From Escherichia coli (GTDB taxonomy: Bacteria > Pseudomonadota > Gammaproteobacteria > Enterobacterales > Enterobacteriaceae), in NCBI RefSeq assembly GCF_044647545.1, contig NZ_CP172818.1: a DNA stretch of 64,000 bases; one strand, written 5' to 3'. The position numbers were made by a program, and so were the translations under genes. Below are positions 3,757-45,645 of the stretch, piece after piece. Under the pieces are notes generated by a model that saw only the letters and a program-made list of their open reading frames with translations, ran no database searches and was not told where the DNA came from. Positions within the stretch are counted from its first letter, which is position 1. Each line of letters opens with the position of its first letter.

Positions 3757-4317
3757 ATGAACGTGAGTAAATATGTCGCTATATTTTTCTTTGTTTTTAT
3801 TCAGTTAATCAGTGTTGGTAAAGTTTTTGCTAACGCTGATGAGTGGATGACAACGTTTAGAGAAAATATTGCACAAACCTGGCAACAGCCAGAACATTAT
3901 GATTTATATATTCCTGCCATCACCTGGCATGCGCGTTTTGCCTATGACAAAGAAAAAACCGATCGCTATAACGAGCGACCGTGGGGCGGCGGTTTTGGTC
4001 AGTCGCGTTGGGATGAAAAAGGAAACTGGCATGGCCTGTATGCCATGGCATTTAAGGACTCGTGGAACAAATGGGAACCGATTGCCGGATACGGATGGGA
4101 AAGTACCTGGCGACCGCTGGCGGATGAAAATTTTCATTTAGGCCTGGGATTTACCGCTGGCGTAACGGCGCGCGATAACTGGAATTACATCCCTCTTCCG
4201 GTTCTACTGCCATTGGCCTCTGTGGGGTATGGCCCCGCGACGTTTCAGATGACCTACATTCCGGGTACCTACAACAATGGCAATGTGTACTTTGCCTGGA
4301 TGCGCTTTCAGTTTTGA
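3757..4317 (+). CDS. pagP: Lipid A palmitoyltransferase PagP (CrcA), 186 aa outer-membrane beta-barrel
   Basis: ORF with N-terminal signal peptide, recognised as PagP; preceded by a long AT-rich intergenic region. Confidence 0.9.
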
Positions 4318-4491
4318 GACAAATGAAGTTTTAGTAAATTCTTTAAAATCAACCACTAAAATAATTAACATCAAAAATAACGCGACTTTTATCACTTTTT
4401 AGTAAAGTTGCACTGGACAAAGCGTACCACAATTGGTGTACTGGTAACCGACACAGCATTTGTGTCTATTTTTCATGTAAAGGTAATTTTG

Positions 4492-4701
4492 ATGTCTAAG
4501 ATTAAAGGTAACGTTAAGTGGTTTAATGAGTCCAAAGGATTCGGTTTCATTACTCCGGAAGACGGCAGCAAAGACGTGTTCGTACACTTCTCTGCAATCC
4601 AGACTAATGGTTTTAAAACTCTTGCTGAAGGTCAGCGCGTAGAGTTCGAAATCACTAACGGTGCCAAAGGCCCTTCTGCTGCAAACGTAATCGCTCTGTA
4701 A
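4492..4701 (+). CDS. cspE: Cold-shock-like protein CspE, 69 aa
   Basis: Internal ATG of ORF 4408..4701 gives [20 protein letters not shown]..., the CspE sequence with RNP motifs; long 5' leader. Confidence 0.95.
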
Positions 4702-4721
4702 GATACGTCAGCAAGAATTCA

Positions 4722-4750
4722 AAACCCGCTTAATCAGCGGGTTTTTTTTG
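4722..4750 (+). terminator. Rho-independent terminator after cspE
   Basis: Hairpin aaaacccgct-taatc-agcgggtttttttt directly after the cspE stop. Confidence 0.75.
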
Positions 4751-31735: not shown

Positions 31736-32461
31736 TTAATGCAGGATTTTTGCGAGGAAGTCTTTTGCGCGGTCCGATTTCGGATCATCGAAGAAAGCGT
31801 CTTTCGGCGAGTCTTCGACAATTTTACCCTCGTCCATAAAGATCACCCGATTCGCCACTTTACGGGCAAAGCCCATTTCGTGGGTCACCACCATCATGGT
31901 CATTCCTTCGTTCGCCAGTTCCACCATCACGTCCAGCACTTCGTTGATCATCTCCGGATCCAGCGCCGATGTCGGTTCGTCGAACAGCATCGCGATAGGA
32001 TCCATGCACAATGCGCGAGCGATCGCCACACGCTGCTGCTGACCGCCGGAAAGCTGCGCCGGAAACTTATTGGCATGAGCGGAAAGCCCGACGCGCTCCA
32101 GCAATTTCAATGCTTTTTCACGAGCGGGGGCTTTATCGCGTTTAAGCACTTTCACCTGCGCCAGGGTCAGGTTTTCAATAATCGACAAATGGGGGAACAA
32201 CTCGAAATGCTGGAACACCATCCCGACGCGGGAACGCAGCTTTGCCAGATCGGTTTTCTTATCGTTAACCACGATACCATCGACGGTAATTTCACCTTGC
32301 TGCACCGGTTCGAGGCCGTTGACGGTTTTAATCAGCGTTGATTTGCCGGAACCAGACGGGCCGCAAACCACCACCACTTCGCCTTTTTTCACTTCGGTTG
32401 AGCAGTCGGTCAGCACCTGAAAGTGACCATACCATTTTGAAACATTTTTCAGGGTAATCAT
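31736..32461 (-). CDS. gltL: Glutamate/aspartate ABC transporter ATP-binding protein GltL, 241 aa
   Basis: Walker A (GPSGSGKST), ABC signature (LSGGQQQR), Walker B ([10 protein letters not shown]). Confidence 0.95.
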
Positions 32462-33135
32462 TATGCTGTCCTTCTTTTCAAGTAGCTGACCAACAACGAT
32501 GCGCTAAGGCTAATAACGAAATAAACAAATCCGGCAAACAGGATCATCTCGACCTGCGTACCATCACGCTCACCAATGGTTGAGGCGGTACGGAAGAAAT
32601 CGGCCAGAGATAACACATACACCAGTGAGGTATCCTGGAACAGTACGATGCCCTGAGTGAGCAGAAGCGGCACCATCGCGCGGAAAGCCTGCGGCAGAAT
32701 AATCAGTTTCATCGACTGCCAGTGAGTCATCCCCAACGCCAGCGCGGCGCTCGACTGACCACGGGAAATACTTTGAATACCGGCACGGATAATCTCTGAA
32801 TAGTAGGCCGCTTCAAACATCGAAAACGCCACCATCGCCGAGATTAAACGGATATCATTTTTTGGCGATAATCCCAGCACGTTTTGCAGAAAACCCGGCA
32901 CAATCAGGTAAAACCACAGCAAAACCATAACTAAAGGAATCGAGCGGAATACGTTAACGTAGGCTTTGGCAAACCACGCTACGGGCGCAAAGCTGGACAA
33001 GCGCATCACCGCCAGCATGGTGCCCCACAAAATACCAATCACGACTGCCGTGACGGTGATTTTCAGGGTGATCACCAGCCCATCCAGCAGATACGGCAGG
33101 GAAGGAACAATGGAACTCCAGTCAAACTCGTACAT
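32461..33135 (-). CDS. gltK: Glutamate/aspartate ABC transporter permease GltK, 224 aa
   Basis: Polytopic permease; start overlaps the gltJ stop and the stop overlaps the gltL start. Confidence 0.9.
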
Positions 33136-33875
33136 TATTTGCCCCCCATGTTGCCGGGCAGGCGAACTTTACGTTCAACCAGCGTCATCACCAGCATGAT
33201 AAAAGCGTTAATCAACACATACGCAAGCGTAATGGCGGTAAACGACTCCCAGGCGTGAGCGGAGTAATCGAGTAATTTACCCGCCTGCGCCGCCATATCT
33301 ACCAGACCGATAGTCGAGGCGATGGCGGAGTTTTTCACCAGGTTCATCATCTCGGAGGTCATCGGCGGGACGATAACGCGATAAGCGTTAGGCAACAGTA
33401 CGTAGCGGTAAGCCTGCGGTAGCGTCAGCCCCATCGCCAGCGCGGCATTCTTCTGCCCACGCGGCAGCGACTGAATAGCGGCGCGTACCTGTTCGCAAAC
33501 ACGGGCGGCGGTAAACAGCCCCAGGCAAAGCATGGATGAAAGGAAAAACTGAATATTGGGATCCAGCTCGGCCTTAAACCACATGCCGATTTTCTCCGGC
33601 AGCAGCTCCGGGATCACCAGATACCAGGTAAAGAATTGCACAATCAACGGCACGTTGCGGAACAGTTCGACATACAACGTACCCAGACCGGAGAGAAAAC
33701 GGTTTGGAACGGTACGTAAAATGCCGAAAAATGAACCGACGAGGAAAGCGATAATCCAGGCGCAGATCGACAAAGCGATCGTCACCTGAAAGCCACTCCA
33801 GATCCAACCAAGATAGGTGGTGTTGCCGAACGGGGCTTGTTGTAAAAAAATACCCCAGTTCCAGTCTATAGACAT
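33135..33875 (-). CDS. gltJ: Glutamate/aspartate ABC transporter permease GltJ, 246 aa
   Basis: Polytopic permease recognised as GltJ. Confidence 0.9.
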
Positions 33876-33879
33876 AAAT

Positions 33880-34043
33880 CTACTCCAGAAAAAAGAGGGT
33901 AGCAGCGTTAACTGCTACCCTCGAAGATTGTTACCCAGCGTATTGCGGTTTTCAGGCCCGATGGGGAACGACCACCAGGCGTATAGTCTGTCCGTGCTAC
34001 GTAACAATCGAGAGGGCTGGAATTTCCGCCCCTGGTTCTTGTA
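33880..34043 (-). ncRNA. sroC: Candidate sRNA SroC in the gltI-gltJ intergenic region
   Basis: Position matches the known SroC locus; on the minus strand a strong hairpin (gagggtagcag-ttaac-gctgctaccctc) plus a T-run ends just upstream of the gltJ RBS; SroC sequence itself not verified from memory. Confidence 0.5.
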
Positions 34044-34044
34044 A

Positions 34045-34953
34045 TTAGTTCAGTGCCTTGTCATTCGGTTCTTTGAACAGTGCTTTCATTTCGTCTGACA
34101 GTTCGAAATTCATGTTCAGGTTTTTCGGCGGAATTGGGTTTTTGAACCACTTATCAAACCATTTTTCCGCTTCACCGGAGGTCTGCACCTGAGCGATAGT
34201 GTCATCCATCAGCTTTTTGAACTGCGGATCGTCTTTACGCAACATGCAACCGTAGGCTTCCTGAGACTGCGGCTTGCCGACGATTTCCCAGTTGTCTGGT
34301 TTCTTCGCTTTCGCACGTTCACCGGCCAGCAGGGCATCATCCATCATAAAGGCAACGGCACGACCGCTTTCCAGGGTGCGGAAAGAGTCACCGTGATCTT
34401 TGGCGCTGATGATGCGCATGTTCATTTTTTGCTCTTCATTCAGTTTGTTGAGCAAAACTTCAGAGGTGGTGCCGGAAGTGACTACGACGGCTTTGTCTTT
34501 CAGATCGGCAAAATCTTTAATATCGCCGCCTTTTTTTGTCAGCAGGCGCGTACCGACCACGAAAATAGTGTCGGAGAAAGCCGCCTGTTTTTGGCGTTCG
34601 ACGTTGTTGGTGGTAGAACCGCATTCAAAATCGAAAGTGCCGTTTTGCAGCAGTGGAATACGGTTTTGTGAGGTGATCGGAATCAATTTCACCTGTAAGT
34701 CTGGTTTGTTGAGTTTCTTTTTCACTGCTTCAACAATGGCGTTGGAGTAATCCTGCGAGTAGCCCACCACTTTTTGCTGATTGTCGTAATAAGAGAAAGG
34801 TACTGAAGATTCACGGTGACCGACGACAATCACGCCGTTTTTGGCGATTTTGTCCAGCGTGCTGCCTGCTGCCGGGGCGGCGTCATCTGCCTGTGCCAGT
34901 CCTGCGGAAAGCGCCAGGGCCAGGATTGCTGTGGCAGGTTTACGTAATTGCAT
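34045..34953 (-). CDS. gltI: Glutamate/aspartate periplasmic binding protein GltI, about 302 aa
   Basis: Signal peptide plus solute-binding protein fold; start set at second ATG (MQLRKPATA). Confidence 0.9.
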   Translation of the reverse strand: MQLRKPATAILALALSAGLAQADDAAPAAGSTLDKIAKNGVIVVGHRESSVPFSYYDNQQKVVGYSQDYSNAIVEAVKKKLNKPDLQVKLIPITSQNRIPLLQNGTFDFECGSTTNNVERQKQAAFSDTIFVVGTRLLTKKGGDIKDFADLKDKAVVVTSGTTSEVLLNKLNEEQKMNMRIISAKDHGDSFRTLESGRAVAFMMDDALLAGERAKAKKPDNWEIVGKPQSQEAYGCMLRKDDPQFKKLMDDTIAQVQTSGEAEKWFDKWFKNPIPPKNLNMNFELSDEMKALFKEPNDKALN

Positions 34954-35050
34954 ATCCAACTCCTTTATCTTCTGCGTTAAAAACGCATGGATACCCGTTG
35001 TGAGTGTTTGTGTTGTTATCTCTGCGACTTTTTGTGCGGTTGTGTTTTGG

Positions 35051-35082
<32 letters not shown>

Positions 35083-35689
35083 TTAGGTAACATTTAGTTT
35101 GGATAAATGTAAAGGTATTGCTGTTTTATTGTTTGTTTTTGCGAGATGCGCCGCACCATTCCGAAGCAAAATTCTTAAACTGCACCTTTTTGGTGCTACC
35201 GCTGATTTGTGGTGGTGCAACCCGGTTGCGTCGCGGTTGATTTCATTGCTTACACAGTAAATAAAGCAACTTACATGCCAAAAAATACTTAGGGGTGCAT
35301 TAATTACGATTGTAATTTCAGTTTGAAAAAGTCATATTTCGGACAGTGTTAACTTTTCGGTGTGGGAATTTTGCCGGGATGATAACTACACACGGGAAAA
35401 TGTTTTTTACTAGTCTTTTCAAGGAAAAATCACTTTATGTCTGCATCTTCGGTTAAGCCGTTAAATGTTCAATTACCCGCAATAACCCTGATCCTTTTTG
35501 CGCTCTGTGTTGGGATATTTTGTTACCTCGCACAATGGATGAGTTACAAAAAAGTCAATAAATCCGCACTCATCCATCTCGGCGCTAACTTTCTCTCTCT
35601 CACGTTGTCGGGTAAACCCTGGCGTTTATTTAGCAGTGTCTTTTTACAGTATTTTTTCTCTTTTATAGATATATATTTTTGCACTCTGG

Positions 35690-36790
35690 TTAGGGGGGAG
35701 GGGGGGAAGGGAAAATGGGGAAAAGGGGATCCCTATTGTTTGCCTTTTTCTCTCGGGTTTGTGTGGTGAGCACATCGTCTTGTGTTATGCGCGAAAAAAA
35801 AGAGAAAAGATAGATAGGTGGGGGGGCCGGGGGAAAAAAGGAAAAAAAGGGGGGGCGGTAAGAAAAAAACACTTCTTTAGGGGGGAGAACACAATAAAAA
35901 ACAGCGGCGAGGTTTTTTCCTTTTTGGTGGGGTGGCGCTAACGTTGTGTTGCGGCCCGGGAAAAAGAGAAAAAAAAAGCCTCTTCAATGGCGGGGCCGTG
36001 GGTGGGGGGGGGGGTTGGGTGGGGGGGGGCCCGGTTAGGTGGGACAAAACCGTTTCGTAAGGAAGGGCGAGTTTTTTGTGGCTCTTCTTTTCTCCGGCGG
36101 GGTATTTCGGGTGTGCAGCAGCAGAATGATGAAAAATTTTTTTAAAATAGGGGAAAACCGCGTGAAAAGTTTTTTTCCCAGGAGAATAAACAAAAGGAGC
36201 GAAAAAAAAAACAACAATTTAGGGGGGAGGGCAAAGCCCCCACCGAAACATTATCCGCTCCGGTAAGTCGTGAGGAGGCCAGTGGTGATTTACTCGCTGA
36301 GATTGCCGATAACCATGATATGGCGATCAATCGGGATGGTAATACGTTATATGCCGCAAATGAAAACACGAACAGTATTTTTTTTTTCGACCTCGGACAA
36401 AAGAAAATCTCCCATACTTTTATACCGCCCATAGCAAAAAAAAAAAAACACAAAAATTGTGGGGTCTGTAAAAATAAGGGGGTAAGATGGCGGTGGTTAA
36501 GCCCGAAAAAAAGGTTTTTTTATCCACTTTTATTTAAAATGAATGCGTGATCGTTAATAAAGGGGCGGAGGGGGGGGATAATTCAGTCAATAACCACCTG
36601 CACACATCCTGACAGTTTTATCCTCTCGTGGAATGAAAAAAAAGCTGGGTGAATAATGCAACCAATAAAATGTATTTATTCATCTATTGATTTATTAACT
36701 TATAAGGAAGGAGATGCCGCCCGAAAAAAAAAAAACGGGGGGGGGAGGAGGGGAAAAAGACGCCCGTGTGATATTACTCTCCGCGGTAAA
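35690..36790. other. Low-complexity purine-rich block with long poly-G and poly-A runs; no coherent coding frame; probable artefact or degraded DNA
   Basis: Runs such as gggggggaggggggg, gtggggggggggggttgggtggggggggg, aaaaaaaaaaaac and gggggggggagg; every overlapping ORF translates to low-complexity G/K/F/P-rich peptides. Confidence 0.8.
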
Positions 36791-37423
36791 AAAACATTGT
36801 TGATACCGCTTGGATTGAGAGAAAGCATATTCGAATCAATAACATCACGAATCATAAAGTAGAATTTCCCACATGTGATGGGTGTGGTGTCGTTGTTGTG
36901 ATGGGAGTATGATAACGAAAAAATAATAGTATTTTTATCGATAATATCGAGGGTATACGAGTAAAAGTTTAAGGATAGAAAAAAAAGAAGCAAAGATCAA
37001 AAGGGAGTGGTGAAACCGTTATCTCTATTAGGTTGAGAGGCAGGAGTGTAAATAGTTGTGTTTTGGTCTGGATGGCAAAGGGATTGTAACCTTTTTTAAT
37101 ATAAAGCCGGGGAAAAGATTGGCGGTTTTTCTCCCCATAACTTTTATTCTTCTCTGTTTTTCAGCGGATGGTAGAAAGATATTTGTTATGGCGAAGAACG
37201 GGTTAATCCAAATGGACAGGACGCGCTCGCTTGATCCGCAGGCAATTATTCGGCATCCCCAATATGGTGATGTGGCTTGTATCCCTGAACCGTAAGAAAA
37301 AGGGGCATGATAATCACGCCCGAAGTAATGAGAAAGTACGTTTTGTTGATACCGGATGCGGTGTTAACGGTTTATTTAGCCTGCAAAAATGATGCAATTT
37401 TGCAGGCCAGCGCATCATTTACA

Positions 37424-38965
37424 TCAACGTTTACGTCGCTGACGCAGACTCATCAACACAGCGGCAAAACCAAACAGCGCCGTAAGCACCCACAGCGGCC
37501 AGTTGCCGGTACGTGCGTACGGTGTGAGTCCGGTAGTCGGCGTCACGTTAGTGGTCAACACTTCGCGGGTGAACTGCGGGATCATTGCCTGAATCTCACC
37601 CTGCGGGCCAATCACCGCCGTAATACCGTTGTTGGTGCTACGCAGCAATGGGCGCGCCAGCTCCAACGCACGCATTCGCGCCATCTGGAAGTGCTGCCAT
37701 GGACCAATAGACTTACCAAACCACGCATCGTTGGAGATAGTCAGCAGATAGTCGGTATCCGGGCGGAAGTTATCGCGCACTTGCTCGCCGAGAATGATCT
37801 CGTAGCAAATAGCCGCAGTAAGCTCAATACCATTTACCGACAGCGGCGGCTGGATATATGGCCCACGGCTGAACGACGACATCGGCAGATCAAAGAACGG
37901 TGCTAACGGACGCAGAATCGACTCCAGCGGGACAAACTCGCCAAACGGCACCAGATGGTTTTTGTTATAGCGATCGGCTGATTCATAGCTGTACGGTGCG
38001 CCTTTACCCAGTGTGATGATGGTGTTGTAGGTATCGTAGCGGTTCTGCTTATTGAGACGCGCGTCGACAATCCCGGTGACCAGCGAGCTACCTTTATCGC
38101 GCAACTCACCGTCCAGAGCTTTGAGGAACGGTTGCTGATTAATTTCCAGATCGGTTATCGCCGACTCCGGCCAGATAATCAACGATGATTTGCCCATCAG
38201 CGGTGCCGTTGCGTTGTAGTAAATCTTCAGCGTATTAAGAAGCTGGCCTTCGTCCCATTTCAGCGATTGCGGAATATCGCCCTGAACCATCGAAACCTGA
38301 ATGGTTTTCTCCGGTTGCGGGGTAAACCACTGGATGTAACGCAGCGGGAAGGGTAGGGCAAACAGCACGACGGCCACCACCAGCGGACGCCAGTTGCGTT
38401 TGACTAACGCCAGTGCCAGCAGGCCGCTAACCATCATAAGCAGGAAGTTAATGGCTTCCACGCCCATTAGCGGTGCCAGCCCTTTTAACGGGCCATCAAT
38501 CTGGCTATAGCCGAACTGTAACCACGGGAAGCCAGTCAGCACCCAACCGCGCAGAAACTCGGTCACTTGCCAGAGAGCAGGAGCGGCAATCGCCACGCGC
38601 AGCCAGGTGGTTTTCGGCCACAGACGCGACAGCACGCCAGCAAACAGTCCGGTATACAGCGACAAATACGCCGCCAGCAGTACCACCAGGAAGATGTTAA
38701 CCGGGCCAGGCATTCCGCCAAAGGTCGCGATGCTGACATAGACCCAGTTAATACCGCTGCCAAAGAGACCAAATCCCCAGCAAAAGCCAATAGCGGCAGA
38801 CTGGAGTGGACGGCGGTTAAAGGTCAGCGCCTGAAGCCCCATCAGCGAAATAATCGCCGCAGGCCAGACATCGTAAGGAGAGAAGGCCAGCGTTCCGCAG
38901 GCACCGAATAATAACGCCAGCAGCAGGCGAATGCGCTGGCGTTCAATTAATGAGGCAAAAGCCAT
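37424..38965 (-). CDS. lnt: Apolipoprotein N-acyltransferase Lnt (CutE), about 512 aa
   Basis: N-terminal multi-TM region and C-terminal nitrilase-like domain; recognised as Lnt. Confidence 0.9.
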
Positions 38966-44513: not shown

Positions 44514-44588
44514 TGGCTGGGGTACGAGGATTCGAACCTCGGAATGCCGGAATCAGAATCCGGTGCCTTACCGCTTGGCGATACCCCA
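44514..44588 (-). tRNA. glnX: tRNA-Gln (anticodon CUG)
   Basis: Reverse complement is a 75-nt tRNA-Gln (UGGGGUAUCGCC...GGAUUCUGAUUCC...CCAGCCA). Confidence 0.9.
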
Positions 44589-44625
44589 ACTGGGTGCACT
44601 TACAAGGTAAGCGTCTTGAATAAAT

Positions 44626-44700
44626 TGGCTGGGGTACGAGGATTCGAACCTCGGAATGCCGGAATCAGAATCCGGTGCCTTACCGCTTGGCGATACCCCA
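44626..44700 (-). tRNA. glnV: tRNA-Gln (anticodon CUG)
   Basis: Identical copy of the preceding tRNA-Gln(CUG). Confidence 0.9.
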
Positions 44701-44748
44701 ACAAATTGGTTTTTGAATTTGCCGAACTTATTCGACACATTCAGAATT

Positions 44749-44825
44749 TGGTGGCTACGACGGGATTCGAACCTGTGACCCCATCATTATGAGTGATGTG
44801 CTCTAACCAACTGAGCTACGTAGCC
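44749..44825 (-). tRNA. metU: tRNA-Met elongator (anticodon CAU)
   Basis: Reverse complement is a 77-nt elongator tRNA-Met (GGCUACGUAGCUCAGUUGG...CUCAUAA...CCA). Confidence 0.9.
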
Positions 44826-44840
44826 AGATTGTTTCTTCGA

Positions 44841-44915
44841 TGGCTGGGGTACCTGGATTCGAACCAGGGAATGCCGGTATCAAAAACCGGTGCCTTACCG
44901 CTTGGCGATACCCCA
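44841..44915 (-). tRNA. glnW: tRNA-Gln (anticodon UUG)
   Basis: tRNA-Gln variant with anticodon loop GGUUUUUGAUACC and acceptor/T-arm differences from the CUG copies. Confidence 0.9.
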
Positions 44916-44949
44916 ATAACCGGGCGGTGAACCGCTTACTCGAAGAAGA

Positions 44950-45024
44950 TGGCTGGGGTACCTGGATTCGAACCAGGGAATGCCGGTATCAAAAACCGGT
45001 GCCTTACCGCTTGGCGATACCCCA
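44950..45024 (-). tRNA. glnU: tRNA-Gln (anticodon UUG)
   Basis: Identical copy of the preceding tRNA-Gln(UUG). Confidence 0.9.
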
Positions 45025-45047
45025 TCCGTACAACGCTTTCTGGTGAA

Positions 45048-45132
45048 TGGTGCGGGAGGCGAGACTTGAACTCGCACACCTTGCGGCGCCAGAACCTAAA
45101 TCTGGTGCGTCTACCAATTTCGCCACTCCCGC
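45048..45132 (-). tRNA. leuW: tRNA-Leu (long variable arm; leuW-type)
   Basis: 85-nt class II tRNA (GCGGGAGUGGCGAAAUUGGUAGACGCACCAGAUUUAGGUUCUGGCGCCGCAAGGUGUGCGAGUUCAAGUCUCGCCUCCCGCACCA). Confidence 0.9.
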
Positions 45133-45140
45133 AAAAAAGA

Positions 45141-45217
45141 TGGTGGCTACGACGGGATTCGAACCTGTGACCCCATCATTATGAGTGATGTGCTCTAACC
45201 AACTGAGCTACGTAGCC
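45141..45217 (-). tRNA. metT: tRNA-Met elongator (anticodon CAU)
   Basis: Identical to the metU copy; first gene of the operon. Confidence 0.9.

Positions 45218-45586: not shown

Positions 45587-45645
<59 letters not shown>

Follow-up and report, generated by a model that had tools for sequence, protein, structure and literature searches.

The 3′ end of sroC as a leaky Rho-independent terminator in front of gltJ in the gltIJKL operon of Escherichia coli

The gltI-gltJ spacer and its terminator hairpin

The analyzed window is a stretch of 64,000 nt of E. coli DNA (contig NZ_CP172818.1), which carries the gltIJKL genes on the minus strand. The first cistron of the operon, gltI (34045–34953), codes for the Glu/Asp-binding protein of the periplasm, and its mRNA is the host of the sRNA SroC. 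The list of open reading frames extends gltI to 34959 with a TTG start codon (34045–34959), whereas the K-12 annotation (909 nt) puts the ATG at 34953. The gltI region is 100% identical to the annotated gltI of many E. coli genomes. The stop codon TAA (34045–34047) is followed by gltJ (33135–33875, ATG at 33873–33875), which encodes a permease of 246 amino acids, by gltK (32461–33135), and by gltL (31736–32461). For these three genes, the open reading frames agree with the K-12 and the PGAP annotations. The spacer between gltI and gltJ begins directly after the TAA, comprises 169 nt (33876–34044), and is non-coding. This is exactly the span to which the original prediction had assigned a strong intrinsic terminator directly in front of the gltJ ribosome-binding site. 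gltJ is the first gene that needs read-through of the spacer, with gltK and gltL behind it.

The minus strand was read directly from 33700 to 34250. The end of the spacer has the order ...CTTC GAGGGTAGCAGT TAAC GCTGCTACCCTC TTTTTT CT GGAG TAGATTT ATG, which in the RNA corresponds to ...CAAUCUUC-GAGGGUAGCAGU-UAAC-GCUGCUACCCUC-UUUUUU-CU-GGAG-UAGAUUU-AUG. The sequence, a terminator scan and folding all identified a hairpin of 12 bp at 33895–33922 (minus strand), with the 5′ arm GAGGGUAGCAGU at 33911–33922, the loop UAAC at 33907–33910 and the 3′ arm GCUGCUACCCUC at 33895–33906. It is followed by a tract of six U residues (33889–33894), which carries the mapped 3′ end of the RNA. The Shine-Dalgarno (SD) motif of gltJ, GGAG (33883–33886), is situated 2 nt past the U tract and 7 nt ahead of the ATG. 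The proposed succession of a hairpin and a T6 run directly 5′ of the gltJ ribosome-binding site was therefore confirmed to the base. The letters of the two arms had also been read correctly, but the pairing had to be corrected from arms of 11 and 12 nt with "ttaac" between them to 12 bp with the loop UAAC.

The hairpin was the best-ranked match of the terminator scan. Seven of its 12 pairs are G-C, and the apical pair is U.G. The U tract begins 0 nt past the stem, and the locus thus has the G+C-rich hairpin and the U tract of an intrinsic terminator. The free energy of the 28-nt hairpin alone was calculated to be -21.6 kcal/mol. The value for the 71-nt segment of terminator and ribosome-binding site was -29.6 kcal/mol, compared with -14.4 +/- 2.8 kcal/mol for shuffled sequences (z = -5.5), and none of 200 shuffles was as good. 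Within the window, a single copy of the 28-nt hairpin is present, and none would be expected even if 3 mismatches were allowed. In 5401 of 5421 complete E. coli genomes, the 66-nt module of terminator and ribosome-binding site is found in one copy with an identity of at least 99%. The combination of hairpin and T-run is far beyond chance expectation.

Another hairpin of about -8 kcal/mol is predicted at 33860–33889 (minus strand). In this structure UCUGG, which is made up of the U tract's end and the SD motif, pairs with CUGGA of gltJ codons 4–5, and GUAGAU pairs with GUCUAU around the gltJ AUG. The outer helix is 98.8% paired over 49 species, with one-sided (transition) changes only, and the 3′ side of the hairpin is constrained by the fixed D-W-N codons of gltJ. 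The predicted structure might sequester the SD motif and the AUG and lower the translation of gltJ.

Assignment to sroC and the 3′ end of the RNA

The whole window was scanned with Rfam at the gathering thresholds, and the family sroC (RF00369, cut-off 45 bits) was found at 33887–34049 on the minus strand with 172.6 bits and an E value of 2.5e-36, covering positions 1–163 of the 163 model positions. The 5′ end of this 163-nt sRNA lies 2 nt ahead of the gltI stop codon, and its 3′ end lies at or just past the U tract. In the curated record of K-12 MG1655, sroC (b4763) is annotated on the minus strand at 686681–686843, which corresponds to 33887–34049 of the window. The K-12 gene overlaps the final 5 nt of gltI and stops 11 nt short of the gltJ ATG, and the geometry in the window is the same. 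Comparison with the annotated SroC had been named as a check, and it revealed one substitution in 201 aligned nucleotides (200 of 201 identical). The difference is at SroC nt 75, which is G in the window and A in K-12, so that a pair in the stem of stem-loop 2 (SL2) is G.U and not A-U, and pairing is kept. SroC of Salmonella (Miyakoshi, Chao & Vogel 2015) and of K-12 are likewise encoded at this locus. They comprise 163 nt and begin at the stop codon of gltI, and their stem-loops, two GcvB sites and terminator with U tract recur in the window. The Rfam score, the position of b4763 on the same bases and the description in the literature all support the SroC architecture that had been recognized from the letters. 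Reference coordinates of SroC away from the spacer would have contradicted this assignment, but the Rfam match and K-12 b4763 both coincide with the spacer.

The label sroC is present in the curated K-12 record, but it is absent from PGAP-annotated E. coli genomes with a 100% identical sequence. The main value of the assignment is therefore one of annotation, as the gene, unlabelled by PGAP, can be given exact coordinates in the window. The anatomy, the family membership, the conservation and covariation, the complementarity to GcvB and the identity to K-12 were all established in the present analysis. The position of the 3′ end, the Rho-independence, the leakiness, the dependence on RNase E and Hfq and the sponge function come from published work on sequences that are identical or nearly so. 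All functional data stem from K-12 and Salmonella, and the strain of the window is known from its sequence.

Term-seq data for K-12 (Adams et al. 2021, supplements, PMC7815308) include a 3′ end at 686683 (minus strand), which was found in LB at an OD of 0.4 and is 14 nt 5′ of the gltJ start. A second 3′ end, at 686689 (minus strand), was found in another growth condition (PMC7815308). By the offset between K-12 and the window, 686683 corresponds to 33889, the last U, and 686689 to 33895, the last base of the stem. The Term-seq ends were measured in K-12, which is identical to the window across the terminator. The end at 686683 has a Rho score of 1.10 and, in the data from bicyclomycin treatment, is marked "No" as to a significant region of Rho termination (PMC7815308). 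Its intrinsic-terminator score is 3.71, just over the cut-off of 3.0, and values of at least 3.0 suggest intrinsic termination (PMC7815308). The published K-12 data thus place the mapped 3′ end in the U tract and show that it is insensitive to Rho inhibition. RNA 3′-end mapping was the other check proposed for the locus, and it found a Rho-independent end on the last U.

The coverage around 686683 in windows of 800 nt was 102 upstream and 82 downstream (PMC7815308). Downstream coverage was thus about 80% of upstream coverage, a steady-state proxy from K-12 that does not indicate a high termination efficiency. Because of the Rho score of 1.10, the intrinsic score of 3.71 and the coverage of 102/82, the site is classified as an intrinsic terminator at which, by the steady-state proxy, most of the signal continues downstream. 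The terminator was termed "leaky" by its authors (PMC4474525). Of the "strong intrinsic terminator" in the original prediction, the intrinsic nature and the stability of the hairpin were thus upheld, but not the functional strength; "strong" fits the thermodynamics of the hairpin, not the efficiency of termination.

When transcription ends at the Rho-independent terminator in the gltI-gltJ spacer, a monocistronic mRNA of gltI is formed together with SroC, and read-through leads to the gltIJKL transcript (PMC4474525, PMC9438474). No other route for the expression of gltJKL is evident. The proposed read-through control of gltJKL has two parts: read-through is necessary, but its control goes beyond the data and was raised as a possibility in PMC4474525. 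The main text of Adams et al. (2021) does not mention sroC, and the data are in the supplements (PMC7815308). In an mBio paper from 2016 (PMC4958250), gltI-sroC-gltJKL is named as a deletion genotype only, and the terminator is not mentioned.

Taken together, it is very nearly certain that the locus is the 3′ end of E. coli sroC, that is, a Rho-independent, leaky terminator within gltIJKL and directly 5′ of the gltJ ribosome-binding site. The family, this member and its location had all been described before, and the biology is at textbook level. A weak antisense 3′ end at K-12 686719 (plus strand, about 33925 on the plus strand of the window) was listed by Term-seq with about 965 reads, compared with 43,000–84,000 sense reads, in one condition. 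As it is located past the same hairpin, it hints at a slight bidirectional activity of the terminator.

Fold, conservation and pairing with GcvB

The minimum free energy (MFE) of the 163-nt SroC is -65.7 kcal/mol (z = -6.0), and the MFE fold consists of stem-loop 1 (SL1), a long-range helix around SL2, and the terminator. SL1 (nt 18–37) is located at 34013–34032 and SL2 (nt 70–94) at 33956–33980, both on the minus strand. Covariation was analyzed with 49 distinct spacers of standard length in one alignment, and the test structure was derived from the window sequence. Helix 1, which belongs to SL1, is 86.7% paired, with two-sided changes at 2 pairs, and helix 7, which belongs to SL2, is 96.4% paired, with two-sided changes at 6 of 9 pairs. 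In total, 17 pairs showed compensatory changes, with 150 cells changed on both sides. None of 500 shuffles reached this level, and slid controls yielded 7–9 pairs. In the terminator stem, 8 of 11 pairs never vary in the alignment of 49 species, and therefore the stem is backed by its invariance and by an apex that tolerates indels, not by covariation. The invariance itself says nothing for or against pairing. RNAalifold proposed a consensus pairing of CCCU with GGGG inside gltJ, which was treated as spurious because both sides are invariant.

For the analysis of conservation, 80 species-representative loci were fetched with the GltJ protein as a probe that is independent of the RNA. Of these, 79 were usable, and the gltI stop codon and the spacer were located in each. 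In 72 of 80 loci, the window included, the stem core GGGTAG/CTACCC is accompanied by both motifs for pairing with GcvB and by a run of at least six U residues. Wherever the distance was measured, the hairpin with its U run ends 10–15 nt ahead of the gltJ ATG, and GGAG, AGGA or GAGG is found at the SD position of gltJ in all 80 loci. The Rfam family sroC was detected in 24 of 34 sampled loci, which include every sampled genus of the Enterobacteriaceae except the unclassified isolate LSJC7. No match was found in the sampled loci of Serratia, Rahnella and Symbiopectobacterium.

The 49 aligned spacers share the invariant blocks GGACAGACUA, GG(U/C)CGUUCCCC, UCUU, and GGGUAG...CUACCC followed by the U tract. 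The UCUU block is part of the highly conserved flank CAAUCUUCGA. None of the 49 aligned species departs from the stem core GGGUAG/CUACCC, and the apex varies by indels that keep the hairpin. Within the spacer, conservation is highest in the terminator core beside the gltJ ribosome-binding site. In Salmonella and most other genera, the stem comprises 7–9 bp, has a loop of 3 nt (-10.4 kcal/mol) and is followed by U8, whereas in Escherichia an apical insertion of 7 nt has extended the stem to 12 bp (-21.6 kcal/mol), and the U tract is shorter (U6). This extension is specific to the lineage. The apices differ again in Kluyvera, Buttiauxella, Cedecea and Atlantibacter, but the hairpin is kept. The U runs of other species comprise 6–9 residues.

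Six loci have a hairpin without a U tract. In the four loci from Serratia grimesii, S. quinivorans, S. plymuthica and Serratia sp. H1w, both GcvB motifs are kept, but the hairpin has no U tract. In Rahnella inusitata and Enterobacterales bacterium AwEntero, only the motif CGUUCC is kept and the U tract is absent. The hairpin in front of the gltJ SD motif has a different sequence in all six loci, and they are below the Rfam threshold for sroC. Judged by these sequences, a SroC-like RNA in these species, if there is any, would need another mechanism of 3′-end formation.

Two other arrangements were also seen. In Cedecea colo (locus positions 1800–2000), and similarly in Enterobacter sp. R1, the terminator module is duplicated. 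In C. colo, the copy joined to the SroC body is degenerate (GAGGCUAGC) and has no U tract. It is followed by an insert of about 110 nt with a hairpin of its own and then by an intact GGGUAGC-GCU-GCUACCC with U6 directly 5′ of the gltJ SD motif. What was retained in this duplication is the juxtaposition of terminator and ribosome-binding site. In Enterobacteriaceae bacterium RIT691 (locus positions 1815–1935), the gap between SL2 and the terminator within SroC contains a repeat (...GTGAATCCCCGGGAGCATACAGGAGTATGTGACCGGGGTGAATG...) that, compared by eye with the ERIC consensus, looks ERIC/IRU-like.

SroC is produced by RNase E processing that depends on the 5′ end and involves Hfq, and it sets off the decay of GcvB by RNase E, which leads to the de-repression of opp, dpp, gltI and other mRNAs (PMC4474525). 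A review from 2022 gives the same account and adds the sponging of MgrR and the repression of fliE and flhBAE (PMC9438474). The complementarity of SroC to GcvB was assessed with searches for exact k-mers and with duplexes in 16-nt windows. These searches were adopted because full-length RNAduplex was uninformative: it gave -79 kcal/mol for SroC and GcvB, no better than shuffles (-73 +/- 6.6 kcal/mol). Two sites were identified. GGACAGAC (SroC nt 57–64, 33986–33993, minus strand) is complementary without a mismatch to 8 nt of K-12 GcvB (nt 156–163), and so is UCGUUCC (SroC nt 79–85, 33965–33971, minus strand), which is located in the loop of SL2, to 7 nt of GcvB (nt 13–19). UCGUUCC formed the best local 16-nt duplex with GcvB (-17.7 kcal/mol), and GGACAGAC was second (-16.2 kcal/mol). 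Both sites are invariant in 49 species. They agree with the two sites that were identified by probing and compensatory mutagenesis (PMC4474525), and GGACAGAC corresponds to the published GcvB site that was mutated at C63 of Salmonella SroC.

Pairing with MgrR was also considered as a cause of the invariant stem, but it was rejected, as the best MgrR duplexes are weak and located outside the terminator region. K-12 GcvB contains at nt 113–135 an internal hairpin, GGUAGC-AAA-GCUACC-U6, which has a 6-bp stem in common with the core of the SroC terminator (GGGUAGC/GCUACCC). As a consequence, each arm has its complement in the opposite arm of the other molecule. The common stem is probably a coincidence, since the Rfam consensus of GcvB is weakly conserved there.

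Proposed mechanism, alternative explanations and related systems

The mechanism that had been regarded as established E. coli biology has indeed been published (Miyakoshi 2015, PMC4474525). The RNase E processing of the 5′ end, which carries a 5′ monophosphate, the association with Hfq and the in vivo decay of GcvB are known from experiments with Salmonella and E. coli. On the basis of the sequence identity to K-12, it is reasonable to transfer these results to the window. Transcription would start at the gltI promoter, and some polymerases would halt at the hairpin and the U6 tract, yielding an mRNA with gltI only, while the remaining polymerases would read through and produce the gltJKL mRNA. 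The binding protein would thereby be made in excess of the membrane components, and we infer that such a differential stoichiometry could be the purpose of the leaky terminator. RNase E and Hfq would trim the terminated transcript from the 5′ side to 2 nt ahead of the gltI stop codon and thus generate the stable SroC of 163 nt. SroC would then pair with GcvB via GGACAGAC and UCGUUCC, and this would lead to the decay of GcvB by RNase E and to the de-repression of mRNAs for amino acid and peptide transporters, including gltI.

An addition to this mechanism, which is not exclusive with it, would be that the terminator is a regulated attenuator. A protein, an sRNA or a ribosome ending at the gltI stop codon would switch it via an alternative pairing, so that the expression of gltJKL and the release of SroC would be conditional and would not follow a fixed ratio. 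The invariance of GGGUAG/CUACCC and of the upstream CAAUCUUCGA in 49 species, while SL1 and SL2 covary freely, suggests a sequence-specific constraint, and GCCCUC (SroC nt 33–38) is complementary to GAGGGU of the 5′ arm and is paired in the predicted nascent fold of 150 nt. The discoverers of SroC also raised the possibility of regulated termination and asked whether read-through, and hence the levels of SroC and GcvB, is regulated (PMC4474525). However, the terminator fold is part of the MFE structure in 47 of 47 tested species, and forcing the pairing GCCCUC:GAGGGU costs a median of 6.9 kcal/mol (4.3–12.0 kcal/mol in the 47 species, 9.5 kcal/mol in the window). Both pairing partners are invariant, so that covariation is absent. 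Furthermore, no cis-regulatory family of Rfam matches the site, and the literature that was searched contains no report of condition-dependent read-through. We thus regard an attenuator as improbable, and any regulation of read-through is speculative. An antiterminator fold with a stability comparable to that of the terminator was looked for by folding at nascent lengths and by forced pairing in the 47 species, and none was found.

The other alternatives concern the origin of the 3′ end and the coding capacity of the spacer. The hairpin could be solely a 3′ barrier that stabilizes the RNA, with an end generated by endonuclease cleavage and exonuclease trimming, as for the REP elements in malE-malF. 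The second Term-seq end, at the stem base (K-12 686689, 33895 in the window), does show exonucleolytic trimming, and stabilizers of this kind are common in operons of ABC transporters (PMC4474525). A pure barrier would not need a U run, but a run of 6–9 residues after the stem is kept in about 72 of 80 species, and the main 3′ end lies on the last U and has an intrinsic-terminator score above 3. Moreover, read-through to the downstream rrnB terminator of a plasmid forms a separate band (PMC4474525), and therefore the site terminates part of the plasmid transcripts. The element is also single-copy and not REP-like, and a barrier without termination is accordingly very unlikely. A repeated palindrome of the REP type had been considered separately and was discarded, as the window contains a single copy with up to 3 mismatches allowed, and 5421 E. 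coli genomes have a median of one place each. Rho-dependent termination would be another source of the 3′ end, and an untranslated spacer of 169 nt could in principle load Rho. Yet the Rho score is 1.10 and the entry after bicyclomycin treatment is "No" (PMC7815308), and the spacer is highly structured (z = -6.0), not C-rich and unstructured, which makes this origin of the end barely conceivable. Just as improbable is a protein-coding function of the spacer on its plus strand, with the hairpin being incidental. The six-frame list does contain a matching open reading frame (33817–34044, 75 amino acids, GTG start codon), but many indels in close relatives are not multiples of three (for example, the 7-nt insertion at the apex and several 1-nt gaps), the conservation tracks the RNA helices with compensatory changes, and the opposite strand has a match to an Rfam sRNA over its full length.

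The terminator of SroC remains the preferred reading, and we consider it rather unlikely that the module has a second, undescribed function as well. This idea is based on the invariant GGGUAG/CUACCC and CAAUCUUCGA and on the spacing of 10–15 nt to the ATG in roughly 70 species, while the rest of SroC covaries. Such a function could consist in factor-dependent read-through, with Hfq or another RNA-binding protein, or in a coupling to gltI translation via GCCCUC:GAGGGU. Alternatively, the dual use of the U tract together with the SD/AUG hairpin at 33860–33889 could set the translation of gltJ on the read-through mRNA.

SroC shares several features with SdhX, NarS, MalH and OppZ, which are also Hfq sRNAs from 3′-UTRs that use the terminator of their host mRNA, are processed by RNase E and have a Rho-independent end with a U tail, and all five sRNAs act in the pathway of the parent operon (PMC9438474). 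In contrast to these sRNAs, SroC has another sRNA as its main target and thus is a sponge. In addition, most of them are located at the end of the transcription unit, whereas the terminator of SroC is internal to the operon, has to be passed for the transcription of gltJKL, and directly adjoins the SD motif of the following gene. Stabilizers at malE-malF and hisJ-hisQ are repeated elements without a U tract that block 3′ exonucleases. The SroC terminator differs from them in being single-copy, in the conservation of its U tract and in a 3′ end that has been mapped as Rho-independent. The REP or stem-loop stabilizers have the same place after the binding-protein cistron, and their presumed effect is also an excess of binding-protein mRNA (PMC4474525).

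Several observations were made in the neighborhood of the operon. A run of 28 A residues (35051–35078) is located just 5′ of gltI, and it is followed by about 1.8 kb (35080–36900) with many long homopolymers, such as G11, A13 and A12. The 1.8-kb segment is 81.7% identical, with 66 gap openings, to a gene of FDAARGOS_497 that is annotated as "rhomboid family intramembrane serine protease", and the adjoining gltI-gltJ region is 100% identical to FDAARGOS_497. The homopolymer-rich stretch, including the gltI promoter region, looks like a low-quality or corrupted assembly. K-12 has IS5D between gltI and lnt, whereas the window has no IS5 at about 34960–37600 but instead the degraded-looking region that resembles the rhomboid protease gene. 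At 4301–4749 (plus strand), the Rfam cspA-thermoregulator family was matched with 136 bits, and judged by the map position relative to K-12 this is probably a paralogue of the cspA family such as cspE. Seven tRNA genes are clustered at 44517–45217 on the minus strand, and a run of 49 A residues (45588–45636) lies beside this cluster.
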